Below are positions 6,279 to 35,574 of a DNA stretch of 36,207 nt, piece after piece. Position numbers and translations under genes: made by a program. The notes below the pieces were generated by a model that was given only the letters and a program-made list of their open reading frames with translations, had not been told where the DNA came from and did no database searches. How positions within the stretch are numbered: the first letter of the stretch is position 1; each line of letters begins with the position of its first letter. The stretch is from a virus (Duplodnaviria; Heunggongvirae; Uroviricota; Caudoviricetes), in IMG/VR virus record IMGVR_UViG_2541047897_000007, positions 1-36,207 of that record; one strand, written 5' to 3'.

Positions 6279-9101
6279 ATGACGGCAGAGTACATCAGGG
6301 ACTGGCAACAACCGCGCCACGCAGTGGGGCGTGAAGGAACGGGGATCCCCGCTCCTGAATCCGCGCTTTCCTCCTGGCTGGATGCCTACCGGGTAGAGAA
6401 CGAGCGCCGCCAGGAAATGGCTGATGCGGCGTTCTCCGCCACGCCGCTGGGCAACCTGATTAATAAAAGCCTGGACGCACAGGAAAAACAGGACAAAACC
6501 ATCACACTGGCAGGAGACGCCAGAAAACAGGCACGCGGCGCAGTGGATGAAGCCATGACCTCGCTGCGCCTGCTGCCGTCCTATCTGCGCGATCCGCTTA
6601 TTCGCCACCTCTCCTTCCTGCGCAAAAAACAGGAAGCCGATCGCCGGAAAGGCAAAAAGAGCTGGCAGGCGGAACGCTATGCACGCGGAACCCTGCGCAA
6701 AATATTCGAACGTCTGGACCGCACCGATCACCGCTGGCTGACACCGGGTTATCGCTCCCTTGCCGGACGCGAACGCCTGGACGATTTGCTTTACCTGCCG
6801 CAGCTCAACAAACACCAGATACAGACGCTGGCCACCATGACGGCGGCGATGTTCAGCAGCACCTTCGAAAAACTCTGCGATGGCTTTGGCGCGACTGATG
6901 GCGAACTGACCATGGATGTAACGCTGAAGGCGTATCAGATGCTGGCCCGCATGGCGTTACACCTGCACGCCATGCCTCCACATTATGACGCACTGACAAC
7001 AGACAAAGACCGGAGGAACGAACCGGACACAGAGCTGCTGCCGGGCGCAATCCTTCGCCTGACCTGTGCGGAATGGTGGAAACGCAAACTGTGGCTGTTA
7101 CGTTGCGAGTGGAGAGAAGAACAACTCCGCGCCGCCTGTCTGGTTTCCAGAAAAACATCGCCCTATCTGAGCCAGGACGCGTTAAGCGAGTTTCGCGCAC
7201 AGCGCGAGAAAACACGCGATTTCCTGAAAAGTTTCATGCTGGAAAACGAAGACGGGTTCACGATTGATCTCGAGACAGTGTATTACGCGGGAGTAAGTAA
7301 CCCGGTTCACCGTAAGGCAGAAATGATGGCCACCATGAAGGGACTGGAACTTCTGGCCGAAGCCCGTGGCGACAGAGCGGTGTTTCTGACTGTCACCTGC
7401 CCGTCAAAATACCACGCAACAACGGAGAACGGTCATCCGAACCCCAAATGGAACGGGGCCACCATGCGCGACTCCAGCGATTACCTGGTTAACACGTTTT
7501 TTGCGGCGGTCCGCAAAAAACTGAACCGCGACGGCCTGCGCTGGTATGGCATCCGCACGGTGGAGCCTCACCATGACGGCACCGTGCACTGGCATATGAT
7601 GGTCTTTGCTCATCCGGAAGAAATCGACAGCATCGTGGCCATCACCCGCGATATTGCCATTCAGGAAGACCGCCACGAGCTGGGCAATGATATTACTCCG
7701 CGCTTTAAAGTGGAGTATGTCGACGGCTCAAAAGGCACACCAACCAGCTATATCGCGACCTACATCGGGAAAAACCTGGACAGCCGCGCCGTGGATGGCA
7801 TCGACCCGAAAACGGGCAAACCACGCGTTGACCACGAAACCGGAAAATCAATGGCCGAGAGCGTGGAGCGCGCCATCGGTTGGGCACGCCTTCACCGGGT
7901 CCGCCAGTTCCAGTTCTTTGGCATCCCCTCCCGTCAGGTGTGGCGTGAACTCCGCCGCCTTGCCAGCCAGATGGCACGCAACCCGGAAGGCCCGCAACGG
8001 CTGAAGGATGACGCAATGGATGCGGTACTCGCTGCCGCTGATGCCGGATGTTTTGCCACCTACATAGAGAAACAGGGCGGCGTACTTGTTCCACGCAAAG
8101 ACTACCTGATTCGCACCGCCTACGACCTCGCCGATGAGCTGAACGATTACGGCGAACAGAGTGTACAGATTTACGGGATCTGGTCACCACTCATCGGGGA
8201 ATCCTCCCGTGTGTGCACGCACCCGGATAACTGGAAGCTGGTAAGACGTAAACCGGAACAGGAAGGCAGCGCCCACGAAAATGGTTTTGACCTTCAGGGC
8301 GGCCCTGCCGCCCCTTGGACTCGTGGCAATAACTGTCCCCGTGTACAGGAAACGGACAACAACGGGACAGAACAGCCGGAAGAACGGCCAGCACCGTGGC
8401 CGCAGCTCCCTGACGGCGTTGAAGTGAACGAATGGATGCGCTCACTGAAACGGCACGAACGCCGGGCGCTGATGCGTTCGCTTCGTGACAAACAGGCAAA
8501 AAACAGCAGTGATGAAATGCAGAGCTGGACACAGAGCCGCAAACAGCAGCGGCCTTTGCCTGATAACCACGAATTACTCGCTAAAGAATGGCGGGAGTCT
8601 GCTGAATCTCTCGGCCTGCATATCGGTGAACAACAGATGCAGCACCTGTTACGGGGCGGCAGTCTGTACGTTGACGGCAGCATCATTGCACCGCAGGGAT
8701 TTGAAATTGTACGCAAACCGGATACCCGCCCGGACAGCCGAATCACGCAGCTCTGGCAGCGCCTGAGCCGTAATCACGGCGTAAGCAGCACGGAGATCCG
8801 CCATAACCCGGTCGCCAGCTATCTGGCGCAACTGGGGGCATCAGACCCTGAAGCCGCCGCACGCCTGGCATCCACACTTCAGCAGGACCAGAACACCATG
8901 AAAACACCCGTTACCGTGCTTTCTGACATGCTGCGCGCCATCCGCGACACAGAGCACGCACAGAGAATCAGTGAAACCACTGAACGCGCCCGCCGCAAAG
9001 CAGACCTGCTGCGGGGTGGCCTGACCATTGGAAACAAAAAACAGACAGAAACGGGATTCACAAATCCCGTAAATGAGCAAAAAACGCGCCGCGATATATG
9101 A
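6279..9101 (+). CDS. A: replication initiation endonuclease (P2 gpA-like, rolling-circle HUH nuclease)
   Basis: 940-aa ORF; HUH-type motif VHWHMMVFAH and tyrosine pair in SYIATYIGK; position after the early operon as in P2. Confidence 0.9.
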   Translation: MTAEYIRDWQQPRHAVGREGTGIPAPESALSSWLDAYRVENERRQEMADAAFSATPLGNLINKSLDAQEKQDKTITLAGDARKQARGAVDEAMTSLRLLPSYLRDPLIRHLSFLRKKQEADRRKGKKSWQAERYARGTLRKIFERLDRTDHRWLTPGYRSLAGRERLDDLLYLPQLNKHQIQTLATMTAAMFSSTFEKLCDGFGATDGELTMDVTLKAYQMLARMALHLHAMPPHYDALTTDKDRRNEPDTELLPGAILRLTCAEWWKRKLWLLRCEWREEQLRAACLVSRKTSPYLSQDALSEFRAQREKTRDFLKSFMLENEDGFTIDLETVYYAGVSNPVHRKAEMMATMKGLELLAEARGDRAVFLTVTCPSKYHATTENGHPNPKWNGATMRDSSDYLVNTFFAAVRKKLNRDGLRWYGIRTVEPHHDGTVHWHMMVFAHPEEIDSIVAITRDIAIQEDRHELGNDITPRFKVEYVDGSKGTPTSYIATYIGKNLDSRAVDGIDPKTGKPRVDHETGKSMAESVERAIGWARLHRVRQFQFFGIPSRQVWRELRRLASQMARNPEGPQRLKDDAMDAVLAAADAGCFATYIEKQGGVLVPRKDYLIRTAYDLADELNDYGEQSVQIYGIWSPLIGESSRVCTHPDNWKLVRRKPEQEGSAHENGFDLQGGPAAPWTRGNNCPRVQETDNNGTEQPEERPAPWPQLPDGVEVNEWMRSLKRHERRALMRSLRDKQAKNSSDEMQSWTQSRKQQRPLPDNHELLAKEWRESAESLGLHIGEQQMQHLLRGGSLYVDGSIIAPQGFEIVRKPDTRPDSRITQLWQRLSRNHGVSSTEIRHNPVASYLAQLGASDPEAAARLASTLQQDQNTMKTPVTVLSDMLRAIRDTEHAQRISETTERARRKADLLRGGLTIGNKKQTETGFTNPVNEQKTRRDI

Positions 9102-19514: not shown

Positions 19515-19903
19515 GCAATACATTTAAATTCAGCAGCCGGAGCGAAAAGAATTTGCAGGGCGTAAATCCTGATCTGGTGAAAGTGACCCGACGGGCACTG
19601 GAAATCTCGGAAGTGGATTTTGGTATCACCGAAGGGTTGCGCAGCCGTTACCGCCAGAAGCAACTTGTGGCCACGGGTAAGAGCCAGACCATGAACAGCC
19701 GCCACCTTACGGGGCATGCCGTGGATGTTGTGGCTTATATCGGCAGCCAGGTGTCATGGGAATGGCCGCTGTACGAAAAAATCGCAGCAGCATTCAGACA
19801 GGCCAGCCGGGAACTGAATATTCCGGTGGAATGGGGCGGCGACTGGAAGACCCTGAAAGACGGACCGCATTTTCAGTTACCACACGGAGCCTATCCGGCA
19901 TGA
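19511..19903 (+). CDS. endolysin, peptidase M15-type (L-alanyl-D-glutamate endopeptidase family)
   Basis: 130-aa ORF; SRHLTGHAVD metal-binding motif typical of M15 peptidases; between holin and spanin genes. Confidence 0.75.
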   Translation: MSNTFKFSSRSEKNLQGVNPDLVKVTRRALEISEVDFGITEGLRSRYRQKQLVATGKSQTMNSRHLTGHAVDVVAYIGSQVSWEWPLYEKIAAAFRQASRELNIPVEWGGDWKTLKDGPHFQLPHGAYPA

Positions 19904-20307
19904 AGCTCTGGCCCACGCTGGGCGTCGCTTTCCTTCTGATTGCCGCATGGGGAACATCCATGCGTCTGTCGTGGTCGCTGGGCCGGGAGAACGCCAGAAA
20001 CGAAGCGCAGGCCAGCGCCCTGAAACGTACCGTCGACACCCTGAATATCATCAGCGCCGGGGTACAGGATATGCAGCAGGTGCTGGCGCAACTCCGCGTG
20101 GAAAATCAACAGCGAAATCAGGACGGAGAGGCCAGACGTGAACAGCTACGCAACGATATTGCAAAAGATGAATGCGCCCACGCTTTGCCTGACGCTCGTT
20201 TTACTGACAGGTTGCGCAGGCACGCAGAACGCGCCACGGCCAGCGCCGTCAGTCCGGCTTATACCGCAGACGCTGACCATACCGGTAACGCCTCCCCCCT
20301 TCCCTGA
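19900..20307 (+). CDS. lysB: inner-membrane spanin (Rz/LysB-like)
   Basis: ATG at 19900 overlapping the endolysin stop; N-terminal TM helix LWPTLGVAFLLIAAW followed by charged coiled-coil-like sequence. Confidence 0.65.
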   Translation: MKLWPTLGVAFLLIAAWGTSMRLSWSLGRENARNEAQASALKRTVDTLNIISAGVQDMQQVLAQLRVENQQRNQDGEARREQLRNDIAKDECAHALPDARFTDRLRRHAERATASAVSPAYTADADHTGNASPLP

Positions 20308-23365: not shown

Positions 23366-23966
23366 TTCGTTGTTACCCCCATCAGCCAGCAATTTCATGC
23401 GTTGTGCCGAAGCCGTCGGAACACGCATTACAGACATTCCGGTAGACCTCAACACGTTGTGGTCGCCGGACACCTGCCCGGTGCATCTGCTGCCTTATCT
23501 CGCCTGGGCGTTTTCCGTTGACCGCTGGGATCGCAACTGGCCGGAAGAGACAAAGCGACAGGTGATTCGTGATGCATGGCTGATACACCGACACAAAGGG
23601 ACCATCAGCGCACTGCGAAGAGCCGTGGAGCCTCTCGGCTACCTGATTGAAGTAAAGGAGTGGTGGCAACTCAATGAGGAGCCTGGGACATTTCGCATTG
23701 TTGTCGGAGTACTTGATCAGGGCATCACCGATGAAATGCATCAGGAACTTGAACGCCTTATTGCGGATGCAAAACCAGTAAGTCGCCATCTGACAGGGCT
23801 GGCGATCAGTCTGAGTGTGAACGGAAAGATTTTCGTTGGTACGGGATGCTATCACGGCGATGCCCTGACGGTTTACCCCTACACCCCGGAGTCCATTATT
23901 GTCGAAGGGGATTATTTCTCTGCCCCGGCCATTCATTTAATTGATAATCTGAGAGTAAACGCATGA
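23358..23966 (+). CDS. I: baseplate/tail protein I
   Basis: ATG at 23358 preferred over the upstream ORF-track start; WSPDTCPVHLLPYLAWAFSVD matches the conserved P2 gpI N-terminal region as recalled. Confidence 0.8.
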   Translation: MSNSLLPPSASNFMRCAEAVGTRITDIPVDLNTLWSPDTCPVHLLPYLAWAFSVDRWDRNWPEETKRQVIRDAWLIHRHKGTISALRRAVEPLGYLIEVKEWWQLNEEPGTFRIVVGVLDQGITDEMHQELERLIADAKPVSRHLTGLAISLSVNGKIFVGTGCYHGDALTVYPYTPESIIVEGDYFSAPAIHLIDNLRVNA

Positions 23967-26134
23967 CAATGAAATACTACGCCATTCTGACTAATCAGGG
24001 CGCGGCACGACTGGCTAACGCGACGATGCTCGGCAGTAAGCTGAATCTGACGCAAATGGCCGTTGGTGATGCAAATGGTGTGTTACCAACACCAAACCCT
24101 GCACAAACAAAACTGATTAACCAGAAACGCATTGCACCGCTGAATCTTCTGAGTGTTGACCCTAACAATCAGAGCCAGATTATTGCGGAGCAAATTATCC
24201 CTGAAGACGAGGGAGGATTCTGGATCCGTGAGATTGGTCTTTATGATGATAAAGGTGTACTCATTGCGGTGGCAAACTGCCCGGAAACGTACAAACCGCA
24301 GTTGCAGGAAGGCAGTGGACGCACCCAGACTATCCGCATGATTCTGGTTGTCACGAACACCAAAGCCATCACGCTGAAAATCGACCCGTCTGTGGTTCTG
24401 GCAACCCGCAAATATGTGGATGATAAAATCTCAAAGCACGAGCAGTCACGACGTCACCCGGACGCCTCGCTGACCGCAAAAGGCTTTGTTCAACTTAGCA
24501 GCGCCACGGACAGTCAATCAGAAACTGAGGCTGCCACGCCGAAGGCTGTGAAAATCGCGTATGATCTGGCCCGGGGAAAATACACAGCCCAGGATGCAAC
24601 AACGACCCGTAAAGGGATCGTACAACTGAGCAGTGCCATCAACAGCACGTCTGAAACGCTGGCCGCCACACCAAAAGCCGTCAAGGCTGCATACGACCTT
24701 GCAGCTGGCAAGGCACCCGTCAGCCACACTCACCCGTGGAGTCAGATAACGGGAGTGCCTGCTGCCTCGCTGACGGCAAAAGGCACCGTACAACTGAGCA
24801 GTGCCACGGACAGTCAATCAGAAACTGAGGCTGCCACGCCGAAGGCTGTGAAAATCGCGTATGATCTGGCCCGGGGAAAATACACAGCCCAGGATGCAAC
24901 AACGACCCGTAAAGGGATCGTACAACTGAGCAGTGCCACCAACAGCACCTCTGAAACGCTGGCCGCCACACCAAAAGCCGTCAAGGCTGCATACGACCTT
25001 GCAGCCGGCAAGGCGCCCGTCAGCCACACTCACCCGTGGAGTCAGATAACGGGAGTGCCTGCTGCCTCGCTGACGGCAAAAGGCACCGTACAACTGAGCA
25101 GTGCCATCAACAGCACGTCTGAAACGCTGGCCGCCACACCGAAGGCCGTCAAGGCTGCATACGACCTTGCAGCCGGCAAGGCGCCCGTCAGCCACACTCA
25201 CCCGTGGAGTCAGATAACGGGAGTGCCTGCTGCCTCGCTGACGGCAAAAGGCACCGTACAATTGAGCAGTGCCATCAACAGCACGTCTGAAATACTGGCC
25301 GCCACACCGAAAGCGGTCAAGGCTGCATACGACCTTGCAGCTGGCAAGGCACCCGTCAGCCACACTCACCCGTGGAGTCAGATAACGGGAGTGCCTGCTG
25401 CCTCGCTGACGGCAAAAGGCACCGTACAATTGAGCAGTGCCATCAACAGCACGTCTGAAATACTGGCCGCCACACCGAAAGCGGTCAAGGCTGCATACGA
25501 TCTGGCAAACGGAAAACAACCGGCAGATGCCACGCTCACTGCTCTGGCAGGACTTGTCACTGCAGCAGATCGGTTGCCTTATTTTACCGGAGCAGACCGC
25601 GCAGCGCTGGCAACCCTTACAGCTATTGGTCGCGCTATTATCGCTAAGGGCAGTATAAAAGATGTCCTCAATTACCTTGGTTTGGGAGAAGGTTCTCCAG
25701 CTATTGGCGTTCCGTTCTTCTGGCCGTCCGCCGCAATGCCAGATACCGTAATCAAAAGCTGGTCCAGTATGGTGTTTTTGAAGTTCAACGGGGCGAAATT
25801 TTCTGCCTCTGATTACCCTGTGCTGGCAAAAGTGTTTCCTTCGCTGGTATTACCTGAAGCCCGCGGTGATTTCATTCGTATCTGGGATGACGGGCGAGGT
25901 GCAGACGGTGGTCGCAAATTATTAAGCTGGCAGGCAGCTACAAACTTTTCTCAGTTTGCCGGGAATATAGGCGGAGGTGCGGGACACGCAATTAATTTTC
26001 ATGATGGCATCGCCGGAAATCAGCCAGGATTTTCACGATTTAATTTCACCAGTAACTCTTTGGGTGATGGTGTGAATTTTGTTGCTGTCAGACCGCGAAA
26101 TATTGCATTTAACTTTCTGGTGAGGGCTAAATAA
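23963..26134 (+). CDS. H: tail fibre protein (P2 gpH-like) with internal tandem repeats and an invertible C-terminal segment
   Basis: 723-aa ORF; N-terminus MKYYAILTNQGAARLANA is gpH-like; internal 100-aa and 56-aa repeats; C-terminal 148 aa lie inside the invertible segment. Confidence 0.9.
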   Translation: MTMKYYAILTNQGAARLANATMLGSKLNLTQMAVGDANGVLPTPNPAQTKLINQKRIAPLNLLSVDPNNQSQIIAEQIIPEDEGGFWIREIGLYDDKGVLIAVANCPETYKPQLQEGSGRTQTIRMILVVTNTKAITLKIDPSVVLATRKYVDDKISKHEQSRRHPDASLTAKGFVQLSSATDSQSETEAATPKAVKIAYDLARGKYTAQDATTTRKGIVQLSSAINSTSETLAATPKAVKAAYDLAAGKAPVSHTHPWSQITGVPAASLTAKGTVQLSSATDSQSETEAATPKAVKIAYDLARGKYTAQDATTTRKGIVQLSSATNSTSETLAATPKAVKAAYDLAAGKAPVSHTHPWSQITGVPAASLTAKGTVQLSSAINSTSETLAATPKAVKAAYDLAAGKAPVSHTHPWSQITGVPAASLTAKGTVQLSSAINSTSEILAATPKAVKAAYDLAAGKAPVSHTHPWSQITGVPAASLTAKGTVQLSSAINSTSEILAATPKAVKAAYDLANGKQPADATLTALAGLVTAADRLPYFTGADRAALATLTAIGRAIIAKGSIKDVLNYLGLGEGSPAIGVPFFWPSAAMPDTVIKSWSSMVFLKFNGAKFSASDYPVLAKVFPSLVLPEARGDFIRIWDDGRGADGGRKLLSWQAATNFSQFAGNIGGGAGHAINFHDGIAGNQPGFSRFNFTSNSLGDGVNFVAVRPRNIAFNFLVRAK
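24461..25500 (+). repeat. in-frame tandem repeat array within H (2 x 300 bp, then 2 x 168 bp plus a partial unit)
   Basis: near-identical units starting at 24461, 24761, 25061, 25229 and 25397, encoding ASLTAKGTVQLSSA...HTHPWSQITGVPA. Confidence 0.85.
25665..25690. repeat. left crossover site of invertible segment (gix/hix-like), inside H
   Basis: ttggtttgggagaa at 25677..25690 is the exact reverse complement of ttctcccaaaccaa at 27501..27514; it encodes the LGLGE junction of H. Confidence 0.6.
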
Positions 26135-26727
26135 TGAAACCTGTTTTTGATGAAAATGGGCTGGCTACAGTGCCGGGCGATATGCGTTGTTTTTATTATG
26201 ATGCTGAAACATCTGAGTATACGGGCTGGTCTGATGAATATATTAATACTGGCGTAAGTATGCCCGCCTGTTCCACTGGTATTGACCCTGGCGAAAACAT
26301 TCCGGGAAGAGTGGCAGTATTTACAGGTAAGGGATGGAGCCTTGAAGAAGACCATCGCAATGAGACTGTTTACTCAATCGAAAATGGTGCTGCTGTTACA
26401 GTGGATTATATCGGTGCCATCAAAAACGGTTATGTCACGCTTTCACCGTTAACGCCATATGATAAATGGGATGGTGAGAAATGGGTGACAGATACTGAGG
26501 CACAACACGGTGCCGCAGTAGAAGCGGCAGAAGCACAGCGCCAGTCACTGATTGATGCTGCAATGGCCTCCATCAGTCTGATTCAGCTGAAATTACAGGC
26601 CGGGCGGAAGCTGACGCAGGCAGAAACCACCCGGCTTAACGCCGTGCTTGATTACATTGACGCGGTGACGACAACAGATACCAGCACCGCGCCGGATGTC
26701 ATCTGGCCTGAACTGCCGGAGGCGTAG
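26134..26727 (+). CDS. G: tail fibre assembly chaperone (P2 gpG-like)
   Basis: 197-aa ORF translationally coupled to H; conserved Tfa-like C-terminus LDYIDAVTTTDTSTAPDVIWPELP. Confidence 0.8.
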   Translation: MKPVFDENGLATVPGDMRCFYYDAETSEYTGWSDEYINTGVSMPACSTGIDPGENIPGRVAVFTGKGWSLEEDHRNETVYSIENGAAVTVDYIGAIKNGYVTLSPLTPYDKWDGEKWVTDTEAQHGAAVEAAEAQRQSLIDAAMASISLIQLKLQAGRKLTQAETTRLNAVLDYIDAVTTTDTSTAPDVIWPELPEA

Positions 26728-27139
26728 GCCATTCAATATCTGGCGCACCGGAAGTATCGACCAGTTCCAGTGCGTCCAGATAATCCAGCCACAAATTATA
26801 TTGCGCCAGTTCCTCACCTTTCAGACGACCAATAGCCGCTTTACCAGGCCATTGTTTACTGTTCATATAATCGTTGGCCTGATTAATCAGTTGCTGCTTT
26901 TCCTGTTCGGCTGCAGCAATCTGTTCCTCATGTGTTGGTGGTGGAATTTCAGACCATGCAGGAAAACCATTTTCTCCAGCGATACGGATTTTTCCTTTCG
27001 GCGGTAATCCGGAAAACTCAATATACACTTGCTCATCAACTTCAACAGCATCATCTGGCCATGAGTCAGCTTGTGTGTAATCCTCTTTCATCTCCAAGGG
27101 ATAGAAAGAGTTTGTCGTCGCGGAATATATGTAATTCAT
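26699..27139 (-). CDS. alternative tail fibre assembly chaperone (G'), inverted orientation
   Basis: 146-aa ORF on the opposite strand with Tfa-like C-terminus LDYLDALELVDTSGAPDIEWPTPP; convergent with and overlapping G, as in Mu G-segment / P1 C-segment architecture. Confidence 0.75.
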   Translation of the reverse strand: MNYIYSATTNSFYPLEMKEDYTQADSWPDDAVEVDEQVYIEFSGLPPKGKIRIAGENGFPAWSEIPPPTHEEQIAAAEQEKQQLINQANDYMNSKQWPGKAAIGRLKGEELAQYNLWLDYLDALELVDTSGAPDIEWPTPPAVQAR

Positions 27140-27161
27140 TTTTTCACTCCATATAGCTAAA

Positions 27162-27514
27162 TTAACAGCCTAACGCTAAAAATGAAGCGCCGAGGCCAGG
27201 AGTACTGGCTCTGGATATAAATTTAACCGGGTCGGAACTAAAACCTGCACAGGCAATATAACCAACAGCCCCGCTATCTGGTGTGTAGTCTTGTGAGACC
27301 AAAACACGCAGACATCTGTTTGGAAATGCAATCGGGAAATGGGTTACTACATCCTGTGCAATGCCTGGTGCGCCGATTGAGCCCCACTGAAGAATAAAAC
27401 CAGATGGTAATTTTTGATATCCAGTACCTGAAACAGAAAGCGTGAAGCTACCCATATCAGGTATCTGATTCGTCCCTGTCCCCACATTCCTTTTTGCCGC
27501 TTCTCCCAAACCAA
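27162..27514 (-). other. promoter-less alternative C-terminal coding segment of the tail fibre (H' variable part)
   Basis: minus-strand frame open from the right crossover site to a stop at 27162; encodes ...[10 protein letters not shown]..., matching the LGLGE junction in H; would fuse to H after inversion. Confidence 0.6.
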
Positions 27515-27526
27515 CGTTTTCGTTTT
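27501..27526. repeat. right crossover site of invertible segment (gix/hix-like)
   Basis: ttctcccaaaccaacgttttcg fits the Din-family crossover pattern (TTCTC..AAACC-NN-GGTTT) recalled from memory; 55 bp upstream of the invertase start. Confidence 0.6.
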
Positions 27527-27580
27527 TATCCCTACCTATACCAACTCTGTATTTTTCACGAAACAAAGAGGATGTTTTTT

Positions 27581-28180
27581 ATGCAAATTGGCTATATTCG
27601 TGTGTCAACAAACGACCAGAACACGGATTTACAACGCAATGCACTGAACTGCGCAGGATGTGAACTGATTTTTGAAGATAAAATCAGCGGAACGAAATCA
27701 ACCAGACCGGGATTGAAAAAACTGCTCAGAACGCTATCAGAAGGAGATACGCTGGTTGTCTGGAAGCTGGACAGACTGGGCAGAAGTATGAAACACCTGA
27801 TCACGCTTATTGAGGAATTGCGGGAAAAAGGTGTTAATTTCCGTAGTCTGACGGACAGCATTGACACGTCAACACCCATGGGGCGTTTCTTTTTTCACGT
27901 CATGGGGGCTTTAGCCGAAATGGAACGTGAATTAATTGTAGAACGTACACTGGCCGGGCTGGCAGCAGCACGCGCACAAGGACGCATTGGCGGACGTCGC
28001 CCGAAGTTGACAAAAGAACAACACGAGCAAATAGCAAGGCTGATTAAAAACGGTCATGACAGGAAACAACTGGCGATCATTTACGACATCGGCATATCGA
28101 CGATTTATCGTTATCACCCTGTAGGCGATATACAGGCTGAAGCAACAACTAGGCAGACTCAGGAAAATGAAAACCGCTAA
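27581..28180 (+). CDS. serine recombinase, DNA invertase of the Gin/Hin/Pin/Cin family
   Basis: 199-aa ORF; N-terminus MQIGYIRVSTNDQNTDLQRNAL with catalytic Ser, LVVWKLDRLGRSMKHL and C-terminal HTH; close to Gin as recalled. Confidence 0.9.
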   Translation: MQIGYIRVSTNDQNTDLQRNALNCAGCELIFEDKISGTKSTRPGLKKLLRTLSEGDTLVVWKLDRLGRSMKHLITLIEELREKGVNFRSLTDSIDTSTPMGRFFFHVMGALAEMERELIVERTLAGLAAARAQGRIGGRRPKLTKEQHEQIARLIKNGHDRKQLAIIYDIGISTIYRYHPVGDIQAEATTRQTQENENR

Positions 28181-28197
28181 TCTGACCATTAGCGGTT
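28171..28197. terminator. hairpin between convergent invertase and U genes (candidate bidirectional terminator)
   Basis: aaaccgctaat-ctgacc-attagcggttt, an 11-bp perfect stem overlapping the invertase stop. Confidence 0.4.
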
Positions 28198-28206
28198 TTG
28201 CGTTAA

Positions 28207-28701
28207 TCAAAACAGCCCTTTAACGGAGCTGGCCGCGCTGTTAAGGGATGATGTGACCTTATCTTTGAAGCCGGACAGCATATCACTGAACGATGAGGAT
28301 TGCAGGCGCTCCCGCAAATCCTCATCACAGCGTTCAAGGGTCAGTGAAAATTCTATCTTTTTCGCCTTACCGTAGCGATCAAACTCGGAACGGGTCGTAT
28401 TCGTTTCGGTCAGGACATACATGCCGTAAATCTGCCCGACACCATCAATCAGAGGCCAGGGGCGTCCTGTATATGCCTGCGTGGTCAGCAACGAAAGCGA
28501 CACTTCGCCACCTGTAATTTCAGGATAAAGCACGCCTGAAAGCACGATGCGATCATCACCTGCACCGATATACTGCCAGCTTGCTGAACGGTTAACGCGT
28601 TCATTTTTCACATGCCGCCAGCTTTTGCTTTGCTGTAACTGCTGATGCGGCAACGTGCGCAGCTCAAAAACAAACATGCCGTAGATCATCATCATGGCCA
28701 T
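28207..28701 (-). CDS. U: tail protein U (tail terminator, P2 gpU-like)
   Basis: 164-aa ORF directly downstream of the tape measure gene on the minus strand; size and position as P2 U. Confidence 0.75.
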   Translation of the reverse strand: MAMMMIYGMFVFELRTLPHQQLQQSKSWRHVKNERVNRSASWQYIGAGDDRIVLSGVLYPEITGGEVSLSLLTTQAYTGRPWPLIDGVGQIYGMYVLTETNTTRSEFDRYGKAKKIEFSLTLERCDEDLRERLQSSSFSDMLSGFKDKVTSSLNSAASSVKGLF

Positions 28702-28707
28702 GACTCC

Positions 28708-31700
28708 TCAATCTTTATCGTAAAAACTGCCACGCCCGGCACGGGCGCGCCGTTCCATTTCTGCCCTGACCATTTCACCGACCAGTTTCGCCAGTTCGCG
28801 GGGATTCTGCGTAACAACGTTATGCAGATGAACATGAATTTCACCACCAAATCCGGAGGCAACAGGCTCCCGGTTACGGGAAGTTACAGGAACTGATGCC
28901 ACTGGCGATCGTATGGCCTCCGCCACCGGGCGGGAGCTGGCCGCAACAACAGGGACCAGCGCCGGAGGCAGCGGAGCCGGGACCACGGGTGTGGTATTAA
29001 TTGCGGGGGCAGGCTTACTGACCTGCGCAATCTTCCGCTCCTGCCACTCCCCACCAGGGACCAGCGCCAGAGGCAGCGGAGCAGGGACCACGGGTGTGAT
29101 ATTAATTGCGGGGGCAGGCTTACTGACCTGCGCAATCTTCCGCTCCTGCCACTCCCCACCAGGGACCAGCGCCGGAGGCAGCGGAGCAGGGACCACGGGT
29201 GTGATATTAATTGCGGAGGCAGGCTTACTGACCTGCGCAATCTTCCGCTCCTGCCACTCCCCACCAGGGACCAGCGCCAGAGGCAGCGGAGCAGGGACCA
29301 CGGGTGTGATATTAATTGCGGGGGCAGGCTTACTGACCTGCGCAATCTTCCGCTCCTGCCACTCCCCACCAGGGACCAGCGCCAGAGGCAGCGGAGCAGG
29401 GACCACGGGTGTGATATTAATTGCGGGGGCAGGCTTACTGACCTGCGCAATCTTCCGCTCCTGCCACTCCCCACCAGGGACCAGCGCCGGAGGCAGCGGA
29501 GCAGGGACCACGGGTGTGATATTAATTGCGGAGGCAGGCTTACTGACCTGCGCAATCTTCCGCTCCTGCCACTCCCCACGAACGGCAAGTGCGCGGGGCA
29601 GGTTCTTAAAGACAATATCACCGGGGCCAATGCGTTTTTTCGTCTCATCAACCAGCTTACCTGTGTTATCAGCAATTTTGCTGAGTCTGCGTAGCGTACC
29701 GGTATTGCTGTCTGTGAGCGGTTTGTTGTCTTTGGGTTTATCGCCTCCGGTGCCATTGCCATTTTCCGCAGACTTCGGCGGATTGATTTTCGCAATGTCT
29801 CCCTGAAACAGAGCAACCTTGTCCTGAAGAATGGCCGCACGCTGTGCGTCTTCAATTTTCTTGCGCGCCCTTTCCGCTTCATCCGGAAGGACGCCAAGTT
29901 TTTCAAGTATCCACGCCAGCGTATCCAGTAGCATTTTTGCAGGTGTCAGAACAAGCTGTAACGCACCGCCAAGAACGTTACCGAATATCTCGCCAGCACT
30001 GGTACATTTATCCAGCGTTTCCTTGCTGGACTCCATCGGTGACAGCAGCGATTTAAACCAGTTAAAGACCTGAATAATCCCATCGCGCACGACATCAAAA
30101 ACAGGACCGAACCGTTCAAAGGTTTCGCGCAACGGAGCCAGTCGTTCCATAATCCCGTTGAACACCCCGATATAAAACGCCTTGATGGGTTCCCAGTATT
30201 TCCAGATGAGAACTGCCGCAGCCACAAACGCGGCAACAATCAATCCGACCGGACTGAACAGCGCCCCGATAGCGCCACCCAGCAACGAGATGGAACCTGT
30301 TACCATTCCCCATAGTGCTGGCAGCACCCTGACGACATTCATTGATCCTGTCAGGAGAGAAAAACCGAGACGTAACGTAGCCAGCTTCCCGTGAAGCACC
30401 CCAATAACCAGAGACAACGAACCAACCGTTGCTGTTGTCGCCAGCAGTGCGCCTCCCGCTATCAGTAACTGGCGCGTCAGTACCGGATGGGCCTGCGCCA
30501 GCGCCGTCACCTTTGAGACCACCCGCGTGAGCCACTGCGTGACAGAACGCAGCGGACCGTCAATCAGATCTGCAATGCGGATGCGCAACCCTTCCCATGC
30601 ACTGCCGAGTGATTTCAGATCGCCATCAAGGTTGTTGGCCATAACCTTTGCCGTGCGTTCAGCCTCACCGCGTGCGCCCTCAAGTTCTTTTCTCAGTTTG
30701 GGTAAGGAACCGTCACCCGCCGCATCAACGAGTGCCATAAACGATGTGAAAGCCTCTTCCCCGGCGATGTCCTTAAAGAAGGATACCCGGTCAACTTCCC
30801 CGTATTTGCGGGTGGCTTTATAAAGGTCAGCCAGCAGATCTTCCATCGGGCGCATTTTGCCCCCGGCATCCGAGACGGACACGCCCAGCTCTTTCAGAGC
30901 TTCTGCCGCCGCCTTTGGCGGTGATGCCAGACGAGCCAGGCTGGCACGCATTGCCGTCCCGGCATCACTCCCTCTGATGCCCATATTCGCCAGCACGCCC
31001 GCCATCGCTGCGGCCTGCTCCAGCGATATCCCCAGCTTACCCGCCACCGGACCGGCATATTTCATGGTTTCGCCCAGTGCGCGAAGGTCAGTGTTGGTAC
31101 GGGTAAACGCTGCGGTGAGTGTGTCTCCGACCCGGTCCATCTGGTCAGCAGAAAGGCCGAACTGCGTCAGGATATTTGAGCCAATATCTGCCGTCTCGCC
31201 GAGATCCATACCGCCAGCCGTTGCCATGCTCAGTACGCCGGGAAGCGCAGCCTGAATGGCCTGCGGAGTGAAGCCTGCCATTGCAAGAAATGCCTGCCCA
31301 CTGGCGGCATCGCCTGCGGTGAACTGCGTTTCAGAGCCAAGTTTTAACGCCTGCTCACGCAGCGCCTTAAACTGCGGGCTGTTTTTGTCGATTCGCGTCA
31401 GTGCCTGAACGCGGGACATCTCTTTCCCGAACCCGATCGCAGGCTGCAAAAAACGCCCGGCAGCATAGCCGCCAGCCGCTGCCGCACCAATTGCCAGCGC
31501 ACCACCTGTTTTCAGTTTTCCTGCTGTTTCCTGCGCGCGCGAATACCGCTCACGCGCACGCGTTACACGCGCAAGCGCCTGCTGTTCGCGTTCAAGCTGA
31601 TTGTTGTACTGTTCGGTGCGTCTGATGGCCTGCTGGATGGTGTTATCGCTGCCTGTCAGGGAAATGCCGTGGCGTTTCAGCTCTCCGCCAAGCTCCCGCA

Positions 31701-32076
31701 TTTTCTGAATTTCCCGTGTGCGCGATTCATTCAGGCGTTCAAGCCGGGTGCTTAACTGCTGCATCAGCTTTTGTTGTTTTTCGCTGAGCACTGTACCCGT
31801 GCGTTGTAACTGATTAAGGGCGTTAAGCTGGCGTCGTGCTTTCACGATGCCAGCATCCGCTTTACTGACAGCGTCACGGGCGCGCTCAAATGAACGCGCC
31901 TGACGCTCGAGATTTTTGATCGCCCCCTGCGTTCGCTGGATGGAGTCACCAAACTGCCCCATCAGGCGGCGGGCGTTTTCGGCAGGCCGGGTCAGCCTGT
32001 CAACGGCGCTGAAAGCGACCCGGATATCAAGAGTCTTCATTGTCTGCATTCCCGCTGCGAAGTGCCGCCCGCTCAC
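28708..32076 (-). CDS. T: tail tape measure protein (P2 gpT-like) with proline-rich tandem repeats
   Basis: 1122-aa ORF; Ala/Gly-rich helical N-terminal two thirds with hydrophobic segments; follows the E/E' frameshift genes; six 35-aa repeats near the C-terminus. Confidence 0.85.
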   Translation of the reverse strand: MSGRHFAAGMQTMKTLDIRVAFSAVDRLTRPAENARRLMGQFGDSIQRTQGAIKNLERQARSFERARDAVSKADAGIVKARRQLNALNQLQRTGTVLSEKQQKLMQQLSTRLERLNESRTREIQKMRELGGELKRHGISLTGSDNTIQQAIRRTEQYNNQLEREQQALARVTRARERYSRAQETAGKLKTGGALAIGAAAAGGYAAGRFLQPAIGFGKEMSRVQALTRIDKNSPQFKALREQALKLGSETQFTAGDAASGQAFLAMAGFTPQAIQAALPGVLSMATAGGMDLGETADIGSNILTQFGLSADQMDRVGDTLTAAFTRTNTDLRALGETMKYAGPVAGKLGISLEQAAAMAGVLANMGIRGSDAGTAMRASLARLASPPKAAAEALKELGVSVSDAGGKMRPMEDLLADLYKATRKYGEVDRVSFFKDIAGEEAFTSFMALVDAAGDGSLPKLRKELEGARGEAERTAKVMANNLDGDLKSLGSAWEGLRIRIADLIDGPLRSVTQWLTRVVSKVTALAQAHPVLTRQLLIAGGALLATTATVGSLSLVIGVLHGKLATLRLGFSLLTGSMNVVRVLPALWGMVTGSISLLGGAIGALFSPVGLIVAAFVAAAVLIWKYWEPIKAFYIGVFNGIMERLAPLRETFERFGPVFDVVRDGIIQVFNWFKSLLSPMESSKETLDKCTSAGEIFGNVLGGALQLVLTPAKMLLDTLAWILEKLGVLPDEAERARKKIEDAQRAAILQDKVALFQGDIAKINPPKSAENGNGTGGDKPKDNKPLTDSNTGTLRRLSKIADNTGKLVDETKKRIGPGDIVFKNLPRALAVRGEWQERKIAQVSKPASAINITPVVPAPLPPALVPGGEWQERKIAQVSKPAPAINITPVVPAPLPLALVPGGEWQERKIAQVSKPAPAINITPVVPAPLPLALVPGGEWQERKIAQVSKPASAINITPVVPAPLPPALVPGGEWQERKIAQVSKPAPAINITPVVPAPLPLALVPGGEWQERKIAQVSKPAPAINTTPVVPAPLPPALVPVVAASSRPVAEAIRSPVASVPVTSRNREPVASGFGGEIHVHLHNVVTQNPRELAKLVGEMVRAEMERRARAGRGSFYDKD
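28953..29578 (-). repeat. six tandem 105-bp in-frame repeats inside T
   Basis: period of exactly 105 bp (marker ggct at 29012, 29117, 29222 ...), encoding GEWQERKIAQVSKPA[SP]AINITPVVPAPLP[PL]ALVPG. Confidence 0.85.
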
Positions 32077-32556
32077 GCCAGCTAACCACTTCGCCGGGCG
32101 TCATCATGAAGATTTCAGCGGGCGACCAGTTAAAAATAACGGCAATATCTGCCACAAAGTCTTCTATGTGCTCAAAGCACACAACCGTGATCAGGCTTCC
32201 GTCGCCTGTTCGTTCTTCCCGCCAGAGTCCGCACCGCTCAAAAAATTTACGGCAACCACACATAACTGAATAAAGTCACGGGATGCCATTTTTTTGATCG
32301 TCACTTCATCCAGTCGCGGTGATGTCACGCGTGACAGCAGCGTAAACATGGATTCCGCTTTCAGATTCAGCACATCAGACAACGACAAATCTCGCAGAGA
32401 TCCAGCCTGCTCAATAGCTCCGGTGATCTCCACATACGTGATTTTTTCGCCGCCTCGCTCAATTGGTTGGGTAAGTTTTACGCCACGCTCACTGGTTTCT
32501 TTCACAGTGTCAGTAACTACCGTGTTTTCGGTATCGATGTTTTTCGTCTCTTTCAT
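32027..32556 (-). CDS. tail assembly chaperone E+E' made by programmed -1 frameshift
   Basis: the -1 frame is open from the slippery site to a stop at 32027 and overlaps the start of T, as in P2. Confidence 0.65.
32191..32556 (-). CDS. E: tail assembly chaperone E (P2 gpE-like)
   Basis: 121-aa ORF with AGGAG RBS; contains a T6G slippery heptamer near its 3' end. Confidence 0.75.
   Translation of the reverse strand: MKETKNIDTENTVVTDTVKETSERGVKLTQPIERGGEKITYVEITGAIEQAGSLRDLSLSDVLNLKAESMFTLLSRVTSPRLDEVTIKKMASRDFIQLCVVAVNFLSGADSGGKNEQATEA
32239..32245 (-). other. programmed -1 ribosomal frameshift slippery heptamer TTTTTTG
   Basis: minus strand gta aat ttt ttg agc in the E frame becomes aaa ttt ttt gag cgg in the -1 frame, which continues as FFERCGLWREER... 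Confidence 0.65.
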
Positions 32557-32610
32557 CAGGAAACTCCTTTCAGTCAGAGGCGACGCACTGCGCCGCCTGC
32601 ATATTACTTA

Positions 32611-33123
32611 TCAGCCAAGCCCAAGCGCGGAACGGATACGGTCAGGCACAATGTCCTTGCCGTCCTTCCGGTAAATGAAGTTCAGCAGGTCAATCTCCCA
32701 CAACGGGCGATCGTTAACACTCAGCTTGTAGTAGGTGTTTTTAATGGCGTAAGTGTGTGATGTGGCTTCGCCCTGTTTGGCTTCCCCCATATCAATTTCC
32801 GTCACACGTCCGCGCATCTCGATTTCATACAGATCGCTTTCTGCATCGGTGTAGTATTCACCCGCAAAACGCAGCAGCGTGCCGTCAATCGTGCCGCCAT
32901 ATTTAAGGAACAGCGCACGAACAGCTCCCCCCATAACAAAACTCGCATCAAGCGCGGAGTCGTCCAGACCGAGATCAATACTTACCGCCCCCATCATGCC
33001 ACCACCACGATAGCTGTCGGTTTTGCGCGTCAGTTTGGGCGGCGTGACGGATGTCACTTTACCCACTTCGTTTTCACCATCCACAAACAACGTAAAAAAG
33101 CGAAGATGTTTTGGTACAGCCAT
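32611..33123 (-). CDS. FII: tail tube protein (P2 gpFII-like)
   Basis: 170-aa ORF between sheath and E genes; size as P2 FII. Confidence 0.8.
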   Translation of the reverse strand: MAVPKHLRFFTLFVDGENEVGKVTSVTPPKLTRKTDSYRGGGMMGAVSIDLGLDDSALDASFVMGGAVRALFLKYGGTIDGTLLRFAGEYYTDAESDLYEIEMRGRVTEIDMGEAKQGEATSHTYAIKNTYYKLSVNDRPLWEIDLLNFIYRKDGKDIVPDRIRSALGLG

Positions 33124-34307
33124 CAGGCACCTCCCAGCACCGCAAATGCGGGACCAAAGAATTCATCAGTAAACGTCTGGTAAAGCTCCATGTCTTCCAG
33201 TGGCGGAACGGGCGTATATTTGTAGCGAATACGCACACGTCCCTGACGTAAATTCGTGGTGCCGTTATCCACCACGTCATACCAGCACTCCGCACCAATC
33301 AGTTTCCCGGCAGTAACCAGCGAATCCAGTTTTGCCCTGATGGCACTGATAACATCCTTCACGTTCGCAGGCGTCAGTGGACTGTCGATGGTTTCAAACT
33401 GCGCTTCCGCAATTGAATCAGCCAGCACCTGTGCGGTTCGGGTATACACCTCAAAGATGTAGGCGTTCGTTTCCGGTGTGCGGTTGCCCCAGAAGCGGAA
33501 CCCGTTGCGACGAATAATGGTCGTGATTTCTTTGTTGTTGAGGCTGTTGGCATCGCTGTCTTCGGCCTGCAACGACCAGAACACATGCCTCGACATCCCC
33601 AGCACATTTTTAACCGGAACGTTGGACAGTGATTTGTGCCATCCCTGCTCATGGTCAATGTACGCACGAAGGCCGCACGCATAGGCAGGCGCGGGGAACG
33701 TTTCGTTTTTGCCACTTTTCGGGTTGTAGGCGATGAAGTCCGGCCATAAGAGCATCACCTCACGTTCGTTGAATTTCTGGCGGTAGGTAATCGCCTCAGC
33801 CATCGTGTTACAGCCGTGACATGAGGCATACACAAACGCGCGCAGTTTACCCGCAATCACGCACAGGGATTTTGTTACCGCCTCCGTGTCCAGCTCCGGC
33901 GCGGCCAGAATACGCGGACGGTATCCGATGCTTTCATCCTGCTCTGCAACAAGCAGCGCATACATCCCCGTATAGCTGCCGTCAGATTCAGAACCACCGA
34001 TAACCAGTTGATCCTGCGTCTTTCCGTCTTCTTCTTTGTGTTCAGCCACGCGAACGACGATCACCTTTGTGCTCACCTGGTCTGCGATGGCCTTAAGCGC
34101 ACGATAAAGCGTCCCCGTTGTCCCGCATTTTCCCAGCACGTCATTGACGCGGGTCAGCAGTGTGGGCTTGTTCAGCGGGAACAGCTTCGCGTCCGCATCA
34201 TCCGCCGTTGCCACGATACCGATAACGCTGGAATCAACATCGTTAATCGCTGTTACCAGGTCGGTACTTTCCGTAACACGGGCACCATGAAAACGAGTTT
34301 CACTCAT
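33123..34307 (-). CDS. FI: contractile tail sheath protein (P2 gpFI-like)
   Basis: 394-aa ORF, first gene of the tail operon; size as P2 FI. Confidence 0.85.
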   Translation of the reverse strand: MSETRFHGARVTESTDLVTAINDVDSSVIGIVATADDADAKLFPLNKPTLLTRVNDVLGKCGTTGTLYRALKAIADQVSTKVIVVRVAEHKEEDGKTQDQLVIGGSESDGSYTGMYALLVAEQDESIGYRPRILAAPELDTEAVTKSLCVIAGKLRAFVYASCHGCNTMAEAITYRQKFNEREVMLLWPDFIAYNPKSGKNETFPAPAYACGLRAYIDHEQGWHKSLSNVPVKNVLGMSRHVFWSLQAEDSDANSLNNKEITTIIRRNGFRFWGNRTPETNAYIFEVYTRTAQVLADSIAEAQFETIDSPLTPANVKDVISAIRAKLDSLVTAGKLIGAECWYDVVDNGTTNLRQGRVRIRYKYTPVPPLEDMELYQTFTDEFFGPAFAVLGGA

Positions 34308-34464
34308 AGCTTCAGCCCCTTGTATCCGTTAAATGATTCGGCAACAATCATCACCCACCACGCGCGTAATCTCACCCCTGCGCCGTTCTCCCGCCACGGC
34401 GACAACAAAAAGCAGTAACCCCCTCCGCACGCACATGCGACCATGCCGCACAGGGAGGGAGCAG

Positions 34465-35574
34465 ATGACCGACACCACCATGCAATTGCTCAGTCAGGGC
34501 ACAGACCCCGTAAAAATGCCGGATTTTGATATTCTCGCGGAGGGTAAAACGCTGTCAGGCGTGGCAGAGCGCCTGATGAGCCTGTCACTGACCGACAACC
34601 GGGGATTTGACGCGGACCAGCTCACCATCACGCTGGATGATGCGGATGGTCAGTTGCAGCTACCGCCACGGGGCGCGCGCCTGACGGTTCTCATTGGCTG
34701 GAAAGGAGAACCGCTGACAGAAAAAGGCACTTACATTGTTGATGAAATCGCTCACGAAGGACCGCCGGACAGGCTGACTGTTTCAGCCAGAAGCGCAGAT
34801 TTTCGGGATGAATTTAACGTTAAACGTGAGGTGTCCTGGCATGATGTGACCGTTGAGCGTGTGGTATCCGCCATCGCTCATCGGTATGGTCTGAAACCGC
34901 AAATCAGCGAAATGCTGATGGATATCGAAATCGACCACGCCGACCAGACCGAAGAAAGCGACATGTCCTTTCTTACGCGCATGGCGGAAATGCTGGGCGC
35001 AATCACCACGGTAAAAAGCGGTAATCTGTTATTCATTATGCCCGGTGGTGGCGTGAACGCACAGGGCCAGCCGTTGCCATCGTTCGCCATCACACGCAGC
35101 AGCGGCGATCGCCATCAGTTCCGCATTGCTGACCGCGAGGCGTATACGGGGGTACGCGCTTACTGGCTTGATCTTAATTACGGGAAAAAGAAAAAAGTCA
35201 GCGTGAAACGCCGTAAACCGCCAAAACCGAAAAAAGAGAAAAGCAGCAGCCGTGAAGGTGATTATATGGAAGGCGCGGAAGGCAATGTGTTTGTGTTACG
35301 CAAGACTTATCAGAACGAGCAGGCAGCAAGACGCGCAGCGGCGGCAAAGTGGCAACAACTACAACGCGGAGCCGCATCATTCTCCATCACGCTGGCACGT
35401 GGACGAGCAGAACTCTACCCCGAAATGCATGGCACGGTAACAGGCTTTAAAAGCGAGATTGATAATCAGGACTGGATTATTGCGAAAGCCGAGCACACCA
35501 TTGATAACAGCGGCTTTACCACGCAGCTTGAGCTTGAGGCAAAAATCCCGGAATGGATAGCGGAAACAGAGTGA
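34465..35574 (+). CDS. D: tail protein D (late control gene D family)
   Basis: 369-aa product from the ATG at 34465 (GGGAGGGAG RBS); lies immediately upstream of ogr as in P2; a KKKK/basic patch follows in the C-terminal half. Confidence 0.75.
   Translation: MTDTTMQLLSQGTDPVKMPDFDILAEGKTLSGVAERLMSLSLTDNRGFDADQLTITLDDADGQLQLPPRGARLTVLIGWKGEPLTEKGTYIVDEIAHEGPPDRLTVSARSADFRDEFNVKREVSWHDVTVERVVSAIAHRYGLKPQISEMLMDIEIDHADQTEESDMSFLTRMAEMLGAITTVKSGNLLFIMPGGGVNAQGQPLPSFAITRSSGDRHQFRIADREAYTGVRAYWLDLNYGKKKKVSVKRRKPPKPKKEKSSSREGDYMEGAEGNVFVLRKTYQNEQAARRAAAAKWQQLQRGAASFSITLARGRAELYPEMHGTVTGFKSEIDNQDWIIAKAEHTIDNSGFTTQLELEAKIPEWIAETE

Follow-up and report, generated by a model that had tools for sequence, protein, structure and literature searches.

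Tail-fibre operon of a P2-type Escherichia coli prophage with a very probable two-state Pin/Cin/Gin-type inversion switch

Site-specific inversion of tail-fibre segments is an ordinary, textbook mechanism, familiar since the work on Mu, P1 and e14; the switch described here is not new biology. In e14, a cryptic prophage of E. coli K-12 (stfP-tfaP-tfaE-stfE'-pinE), a constant fibre part is followed by an Sv module, a chaperone, an inverted chaperone, an inverted Sv' module and an invertase gene that reads away from them. The P1 C segment and the Mu G segment share the mechanism class and the Sc-Sv/Sv', U/U' logic. Published long-read and PCR work has already demonstrated such switching in E. 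coli P2-like prophages. Two- and four-state switching of P2-like prophages in EPEC E2348/69 was found by sequencing and PCR, and both orientations occurred together in cultures for two EPEC P2-like prophages as well as for e14 (PMC4272514, among whose references a Fels-2 Fin invertase precedent appears). Orientations also coexist in three EC958 prophages (Phi1, Phi2 and Phi4), and both were seen for Phi2 in PacBio reads (PMC4134206). P2 itself carries H and G followed by fun(Z) and has no invertase. The initial annotation of the present locus was therefore right that P2 lacks the switch, but not in taking the switch as a distinguishing mark of this element, since annotations of phages P88 and 500465-2 show this layout too, and it is widespread among E. 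coli.

The whole stretch of DNA that we analysed (the window; positions 1 to 36,207 of IMG/VR record IMGVR_UViG_2541047897_000007) is a complete P2-type E. coli prophage (Peduoviridae, P88/Gemsvirus-like). It contains the P2-type structural genes for portal (Q), terminase (P), scaffold (O) and capsid (N), the baseplate and fibre genes V-W-J-I-H and the tail genes FI-FII-E-T-U-D, and Pfam Tail_P2_I and Phage_P2_GpU were both matched. A database prophage, L001, is 98-99.7% identical to the window, and its RefSeq annotation backs the P2-type structural set. The structural gene order is also found in P88 (Xuanwuvirus) and 500465-2 (Gemsvirus), which have the same overall layout of H, G, G', H' and 'DNA invertase' and the same minus-strand U-T-E-FII-FI block; P88 has a Mu-like cassette and an invertase 81.5% identical to that of the window. 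The tail modules of EC958 Phi2 and of strain SCU-105 differ from the window in being arranged D-V-W-J-I-H. The FI-FII-E-T-U block is inverted relative to P2, and we rejected it as a product of the invertase: no crossover site lies on its flanks, and its arrangement is kept in P88, 500465-2 and L001. Between the convergent invertase and gpU genes lies a terminator-like hairpin with a 12-bp stem (28170-28199).

The switch locus consists of a 1,834-bp cassette (25679-27512) with Sv and U on the plus strand and U' and Sv' on the minus strand, so that the two alternative fibre C-termini and two chaperones first annotated between the sites are indeed there. Upstream of the cassette lies Hc, the constant part of the tail-fibre gene H (plus strand, 23963-25678, up to the crossover dinucleotide; complete ORF 23963-26134), which comprises an N-terminal collar-fibre domain and seven Phage_fiber_2 repeats (Pfam matches of H: Phage_tail_fib, 9e-62; Phage_fiber_2, 2e-131 in seven stretches). 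The expressed variable C-terminus Sv (plus strand, 25679-26134; 151 aa counted from GLGE) is in frame with Hc; among PHROG tail-fibre families it matches the C-terminal ends (phrog_3100, 3e-52, profile positions 211-381 of 382). The co-oriented gene for the assembly chaperone U, the equivalent of P2 G (plus strand, 26134-26727; Pfam Caudo_TAP, 1e-26; phrog_105, 7e-84), begins within the H stop (TAATG). On the minus strand, the silent alternative C-terminus Sv' (27162-27512; Pfam Gp53-like_C, 1.5e-15) likewise corresponds to the C-terminal ends of fibre families in PHROG and lacks a start within the segment. It is followed by the alternative chaperone U' (26699-27139; Caudo_TAP, 1e-38; phrog_188, 1e-66), each C-terminal module thus preceding its own Caudo_TAP chaperone. 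A consensus scan of 27100-27700 found no sigma-70-like promoter leading into Sv' from outside the segment, in agreement with the earlier description of this module as promoter-less. Judged by their domain matches, the two tips appear to have unrelated folds, tail-collar-fibre-like for Sv and gp53-like_C for Sv'. When the cassette was flipped in silico, H stayed in frame and went from 723 aa to 688 aa with the Sv' module at its end. Intact Hc-Sv' fusions of this kind are found in strains 1439 and SCU-105, and across isolates the silent ORFs of Sv' and U' have stayed intact, with 97-99% conservation.

Gene order and orientation are those of e14, and the 29-nt overlap between the 3' ends of U and U' is common to both loci. 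The chaperones resemble those of e14, with 63.5% identity between U and TfaE and 60% between U' and TfaP. The C-terminal modules, however, are just 29-41% identical (41% for Sv and StfE) and the outer half-sites differ; moreover, e14, a lambdoid element, is defective and has a short stub of a fibre, whereas in the window the switch belongs to a 723-aa H in a P2-type prophage that appears complete. In Mu the invertase gene has the same position relative to the segment as in the window. The segments of Mu (~3 kb) and P1 (~4.2 kb) are larger and have different Sv and U families, both phages are unrelated to P2 as hosts of the switch, and in P1, unlike the window, cin reads towards the segment and long inverted repeats flank it.

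The cassette is bounded by two 26-bp crossover sites in inverted orientation, which have the same core and the half-site GGTTTGGGAGAA in common. The left site, TCCTCAATTACC TT GGTTTGGGAGAA, occupies 25665-25690 (plus strand; core TT at 25677-25678) and lies, as first annotated, inside H; the right site, TTCTCCCAAACC AA CGTTTTCGTTTT, occupies 27501-27526 (plus strand; core AA at 27513-27514). An exact inverted repeat of 14 nt had been reported here. It was found in place, TTGGTTTGGGAGAA at 25677-25690 pairing with its own reverse complement at 27501-27514, but the exact repeat is 15 nt long (25677-25691 and 27500-27514) and reaches 18 nt with one mismatch. The reported distance of 55 bp to the invertase holds if counted from the end of the annotated interval and not from the end of the repeat: from the end of the right site to the ATG at 27581 there are 54 nt, and from the end of the 14-nt repeat 66 nt. 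Both junctions encode GLGE, as had been noted, because the half-site itself reads GGT TTG GGA GAA.

At least one exact 15-nt inverted repeat appeared in about half of mononucleotide shuffles of 36 kb, and the exact repeat by itself is not beyond chance. The match to an invertase site is. When every 26-mer of the window was scored against the invertase crossover consensus TTCTCNNAAACCNNGGTTTNNGAGAA, the left site (17/20) and the right site (15/20) were the top two, followed by a 26-mer at 4415 with 14/20; the 12-mer GGTTTGGGAGAA has exactly two copies in the window, mutually inverted. A shufflon-like multi-inversion system was rejected, as the full scan of every 26-mer and every half-site in the window yielded no crossover sites beyond these two; one of the EPEC prophages has three. 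The left site shares its inner half-site and its TT core exactly with e14 pix. The left site is identical in SCU-105 and one base off the 5' site of EC958 Phi2 (PMC4134206 Table 3). The right site, which we compared with e14 pixR (TTCTCCCAAACCAACGTTTATGAAAA), has an outer half (AAAACGAAAACG) that matches the consensus poorly. In other genomes, homology to Hc ends at the crossover site. By sequence, the sites are of the pix/cix type (TT core, as in P1 cix) and not of the Mu gix (TC core) or Hin type. The original reading is upheld in essence, with all the structural elements that it named in place, and its label 'Gin/Hin-type' needs only a minor correction as to the sites; the enzyme does belong to the Gin/Cin/Pin family of serine recombinases.

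The invertase gene (plus strand, 27581-28180) encodes a 199-aa serine DNA invertase of the Pin/Gin/Cin family and reads away from the segment, like Mu gin. The protein is full length, with Pfam Resolvase (2.4e-51) and HTH_7 (1.4e-12) domains, and does not differ from the L001 enzyme WP_001673187.1 (100% identity). Over residues 1-182 it aligns to Gin chain 4m6f at E 3e-91, with MQIGYIRVSTNDQ and in it the catalytic Ser9 conserved, and the Gin crystal-structure chain 3uj3 is matched at the same E-value. Identity is 82.5% to e14 PinE, 76% to Gin and 74% to Cin, while gamma-delta/Tn3 resolvases were matched with E-values of just 1e-31 to 1e-26. Taking enzyme and sites together, e14 Pin/pix and P1 Cin/cix are the closest systems by sequence comparison. 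The consensus scan of 27100-27700 recognised no promoter for the invertase, nor did inspection by eye reveal a convincing -35/-10 pair for it or for Sv'. The 5' end of the gene holds a putative Fis-dependent recombinational enhancer (plus strand, 27599-27670, gene nt 19-90), 95 bp from the right site. This stretch forms a gap-free alignment with the annotated enhancer of P1 cin (78% identity) and contains Fis-consensus-like 15-mers at 27602-27616 and 27651-27665 (gene nt 22-36 and 71-85). Among eight invertase genes, synonymous-site identity was 0.75 in codons 1-12 and 0.70 in codons 25-36, against 0.27-0.57 elsewhere, a weak signal. Alignment and synonymous-site signal together are no more than suggestive of an enhancer at this position.

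Comparison of isolates provides strong evidence that the segment inverts. Both orientations of the same or a near-identical switch occur in nature with breakpoints at the sites. The prophages L002 (strain Eco_23-3511) and L007 (strain 1439) share one invertase protein, WP_001673187.1, and their flanks (3.5 and 3.7 kb) are 100% identical; between these flanks, a stretch of 1,837 bp has opposite orientations in the two (99.9% identity), and the breakpoints fall in the repeats. In SCU-105 the whole cassette of the window (25677-27517, 97.7%) lies inverted behind a collinear Hc, the breakpoints falling exactly at the crossover sites. In RIVM strains that are isogenic in the compared region, the sole difference is that a 92.6%-identical cassette beside pinE is inverted. 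Across 5,426 E. coli genomes, at a coverage of at least 80%, the Sv'-site-invertase junction was found in 92 and the Sv-site-invertase junction in 55.

With the sites, frames, domains, intact invertase and both natural orientations directly established, we consider it very probable that the tail-fibre operon of this P2-type prophage carries a site-specific inversion switch of the Pin/Cin/Gin type with two states. In this switch, the invertase would bind both 26-bp sites and, by analogy with Gin, Hin and Cin, would be activated by a Fis-bound enhancer in its own 5' coding region. It would then cut both sites at the central TT/AA, rotate the strands and rejoin them, turning the 1,834-bp cassette around. 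In the present orientation, Hc-Sv (723 aa) and chaperone U would be expressed; after inversion, Hc-Sv' (688 aa, with the gp53-like tip) and chaperone U' would take their place. Since transcription of H starts outside the cassette, only the module facing Hc would be expressed. We infer the dependence on Fis and the enhancer from the related systems, and any rate of switching would likewise be inferred.

It is unlikely, in our estimation, that another resident enzyme acting in trans (e14 Pin, or a Mu- or P1-like invertase), and not the product of the adjacent gene, carries out most of the inversion. That reading builds on the cross-reactivity of enzymes and sites within the family, and it gains from the identity of the inner half-site to e14 pix, from the 74-84% mutual identity of Cin/Gin/Pin family invertases, from EC958 Phi4, which inverts despite a truncated invertase of its own (PMC4134206), and from the number of matching places in E. 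coli genomes (median 2, up to 16). The adjacent invertase, however, is intact, 100% conserved among relatives and canonically placed, with the enhancer-like stretch close to the right site, and action in trans would supplement its action in cis rather than replace it.

We regard it as very unlikely that the architecture is a frozen relic, in which the prophage of the window no longer flips and the minus-strand modules are silent fossils, for example with the invertase unexpressed or the degenerate outer half-site unbound. The weak outer half of the right site and the unrecognised invertase promoter would fit such a relic, as would the orientation of the closest relatives: the four database prophages that are at least 99% identical across the right junction all share that of the window. 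Among the 5,426 genomes, the best matches to the flipped right junction were 87-94% identical and none exceeded 94.6%, that one being in two pieces; the exact flipped state of cassette plus invertase is therefore absent from this set. An assembly, however, reports only the majority orientation. L002 and L007 have opposite orientations with the same invertase protein and the same sites, L008 shows one more recombination event with them, and the conservation of the intact silent ORFs also speaks against fossils. A chance repeat beside minus-strand ORFs left over from an ancient duplication or a horizontal insertion, without any recombination, can be dismissed: although repeats of this length are common in shuffled windows, these two beat all other 26-mers of the window on the crossover consensus, lie in frame at the Hc/Sv junction beside an invertase, and are the exact breakpoints of natural inversions, which refutes it.

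A two-state switch means that a lysogen population would release phage with two receptor-binding tips, and host-range predictions made from a single assembly orientation would therefore be incomplete. Judging from the unrelated tip folds and the precedent of Mu and P1, exchange of the tip would alter host range, and it probably changes which bacteria the phage attaches to. The invertase may also act in trans on other invertible segments of the same cell. In the output of annotation pipelines, the silent module, and at times also the active fibre, is mislabelled.

An aberrant inversion was found in strain S1-CHI-01-A, in one assembly only (GCF_036884535.1, 4569700-4571550). Here a quasi-site inside Sv, GCGGTGATTTCA TT CGTATCTGGGAT (25863-25888, plus strand), which matches the consensus at just 7/20 positions, had undergone reciprocal exchange with the right site exactly at the TT common to both. 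The resulting H is an in-frame chimera of 642 aa with the order Hc-GLGE-66 aa of Sv-GLGE-Sv'. From this single example we suggest tentatively, with the balance against it, that from time to time the invertase joins a crossover site to very poor quasi-sites within the fibre gene, and that in nature such events create new in-frame chimeric fibres and switches locked by direct repeats. If so, the invertase would diversify fibres besides toggling them.

In current annotation, PGAP names Sv' as a free-standing 'gp53-like domain-containing protein' and flags the intact fusions as pseudogenes.

Two 26-bp invertase crossover sites, whose core is an inverted repeat with its left copy inside the tail-fibre gene H, bound the segment at 25665-25690 (left, TCCTCAATTACC TT GGTTTGGGAGAA) and 27501-27526 (right, read on the other strand, AAAACGAAAACG TT GGTTTGGGAGAA). 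The repeat had been described as 14 nt in length; it is present, but the exact match is 15 nt (25677-25691 and 27500-27514), extending to 18 nt if one mismatch is allowed. By itself, an inverted repeat of 15 nt could well arise by chance in 36 kb: about half of shuffles contained at least one. The left and right sites match the consensus TTCTCNNAAACCNNGGTTTNNGAGAA at 17 and 15 of 20 positions, respectively, and are the top two matches among the 26-mers of the window, in which no copies of the 12-mer half-site were found beyond these two sites. Both junctions encode GLGE, as the initial annotation had stated, because the half-site GGT TTG GGA GAA translates as G-L-G-E in each fibre frame. Comparison with the e14 pix sites (CTCTCGAAAACC TT GGTTTGGGAGAA and TTTTCATAAACG TT GGTTTGGGAGAA), the P1 cix site (...CC TT GGTTTAAGAGAA) and the Mu gix site (TTATCCAAAACC TC GGTTTACAGGAA) leads us to assign the window's sites, by their sequence, to the TT-core pix/cix type and not to the gix type. 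The 5' site of EC958 Phi2 (TCCTCAATTACCTTGGTTTAGGAGAA) is one base off the window's left site (PMC4134206).

Between the sites, the expressed C-terminus Sv (25679-26134) completes the 723-aa H and aligns with the C-terminal ends of PHROG families of tail-collar fibres. It is followed by the chaperone gene U (26134-26727), the equivalent of P2 G, whose start lies on the H stop codon (TAATG). On the minus strand, U' (26699-27139) and the silent C-terminus Sv' (27162-27512, with a gp53-like C-terminal domain) mirror U and Sv; both U and U' are Caudo_TAP chaperones. Flipping 25679-27512 in silico gave an open 688-aa H (...NYLGLGE joined to AAKRNVG...) with Sv' at its end. The alternative C-terminus had been called promoter-less, in agreement with a promoter scan that recognised no sigma-70-like promoter reading into Sv' from the invertase side, and the free-standing 'gp53-like domain-containing protein' ORF annotated by PGAP is the Sv' frame continuing past the site. 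The cassette proteins are e14-like (U 63.5% identical to TfaE, U' 60% to TfaP, Sv 41% to StfE). The convergent U and U' overlap at their 3' ends by 29 nt (26699-26727), as do e14 tfaP and tfaE.

With the repeat, sites, invertase and both fibre frames in place, the switch noticed initially is confirmed, and its reading as invertible is supported by related isolates that carry the cassette in opposite orientations. Strains Eco_23-3511 and 1439 encode an identical invertase protein and have flanks of 3.5 and 3.7 kb at 100% identity, around an inverted 1,837-bp middle of 99.9% identity; the alignments overlap in the repeats only, and H is intact in both states of the pair (619 aa with Sv, 588 aa with Sv'). 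SCU-105 carries the complete cassette of the window (25677-27517) at 97.7% identity in inverted orientation, behind a collinear constant part of H (Hc); its left site is identical to the window's, and the annotation there treats the Hc-Sv' fusion as an intact tail-fibre protein. Two RIVM isolates differ solely by an inverted, 92.6%-identical cassette adjoining pinE, with 4 kb on each side 100% identical. Across 5,426 complete genomes (coverage at least 80%), the Sv'-site-invertase junction was found in 92 and the Sv-site-invertase junction in 55. All four prophages with at least 99% identity at the right junction have the window's orientation, and the window's exact combination of cassette and invertase was not found in the flipped state among the 5,426. 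Judged from these sequences, switching in this particular lysogen is very likely.

This kind of switch was known before, and the prophage family in which it lies had already been sequenced. In single cultures, both orientations have been found together for e14 and, in EPEC E2348/69, for a pair of P2-like prophages, of which one has two states and the other, with three repeats, has four (PMC4272514), and PacBio reads show both orientations for three prophages of EC958, for which the 26-bp sites are tabulated (PMC4134206). P2 itself had been said to lack the switch, and its record indeed shows H, G, a terminator, fun(Z) and FI without an invertase; such fibre switches are common in other Peduoviridae and are not a novelty.

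The invertase (27581-28180, 199 aa) has a resolvase catalytic domain and HTH_7. Over residues 1-182 it aligns at E 3e-91 to chains of Gin crystal structures, and Ser9 is present. The protein is 100% identical to WP_001673187.1 of the ST69 prophage, 84% to pinE of the RIVM strains, 82.5% to e14 PinE, 76% to Mu Gin and 74% to P1 Cin. In the P1 record, cin nt 19-90 are annotated as the enhancer of inversion, and window 27599-27670 aligns to this stretch without gaps at 78% identity; we infer a putative enhancer there. Fis-consensus-like 15-mers occur at nt 22-36 and 71-85 of the invertase gene; gin and pinE conserve both, cin only the downstream one. In a small sample of eight invertase genes that are not independent, synonymous-position identity within invariant codons was 0.75 over codons 1-12, 0.70 over codons 25-36 and 0.27-0.57 elsewhere, a pattern that fits two constrained DNA sites with a free spacer between. 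The right crossover point and the centre of the proximal Fis-like motif are ~95 bp apart, a spacing compatible with the minimal enhancer-to-site distance in Hin and Gin.

Homology to other genomes repeatedly begins or ends exactly at the crossover sites (query 475-2320 in one comparison corresponds to window 25674-27519; in another, query 1-313 ends at the site), which shows the cassette to be a mobile module that is passed among P1-like plasmids and prophages unrelated to each other. Site-bounded matches (25674-27519) at 92-98% identity lie in unrelated backbones: EC958-Phi2 type, pinE-linked defective prophages and P1-like plasmids of ~92-97 kb.

A different exchange was seen in strain S1-CHI-01-A (NZ_CP145668.1), which carries the ST69 prophage with 99.9%-identical flanks and an inversion of 1,640 bp only (positions 6487-6512 and 8124-8149 of its locus, L008). 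The partners were the right site and a quasi-site inside Sv (GCGGTGATTTCA TT CGTATCTGGGAT, window 25863-25888) that matches 7 of 20 consensus positions, a score equalled or bettered by thousands of window 26-mers. The exchange is reciprocal, falls precisely on the TT that both share, and leaves the two good half-sites in direct orientation. Its product is an open, in-frame 642-aa chimeric H (Hc-GLGE-66 aa of Sv-GLGE-Sv'), which PGAP labels as pseudogene fragments although it is intact. The event resembles the 'quasi-site' inversions of Cin (Iida & Hiestand-Nauer 1987, as cited in PMC4134206). The junction occurs in one genome only among the 5,426, and a mis-assembly retains some residual probability.

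The window is a P2-type prophage, with the integrase at its left end followed by Q-P (minus strand), O-N-M-L, lysis genes, R-S, V-W-J-I-H-G, the invertase, U-T-E-FII-FI (minus strand) and D. The E. coli ST69 prophage (NZ_CP102488) is 98-99.7% identical over the region with matching annotation, and phages P88 (Xuanwuvirus) and 500465-2 (Gemsvirus) share the layout, with a 'DNA invertase' annotated after the fibre cassette. Whereas P2 has the order FI-FII-E-T-U-D, the window's FI-FII-E-T-U block (28207-34307, minus strand) is inverted, on the strand opposite to H and D, and D (34333-35574, plus strand) is separated from the tail operon. P88, 500465-2 and the ST69 prophage keep this arrangement; no invertase-type site flanking the block was found in the window. 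Related prophages have an annotated hok/gef-family toxin gene just past ogr (19799-19939 in the ST69 locus, L001; 16946-17086 in the P88 locus, L003). Within H, 24464-25507 contains near-perfect long tandem repeats (96% matches; a 300-nt unit x 2.1 and a 168-nt unit x 3.6) encoding Phage_fiber_2 units, and copy number varies among near-identical prophages (H of 723 aa in the window, 611 aa in ST69, 501 aa in 500465-2). The tape-measure gene (28708-32076, minus strand) contains a 105-nt unit x 6.0 (98% identity, 28950-29579) encoding the 35-aa repeat GGEWQERKIAQVSKPAPAINITPVVPAPLPxALVP; its product, 1,122 aa long in the window, has 1,005 aa in the prophages of ST69, 1439 and S1-CHI-01-A, so that the tail-length ruler varies in length among close relatives.
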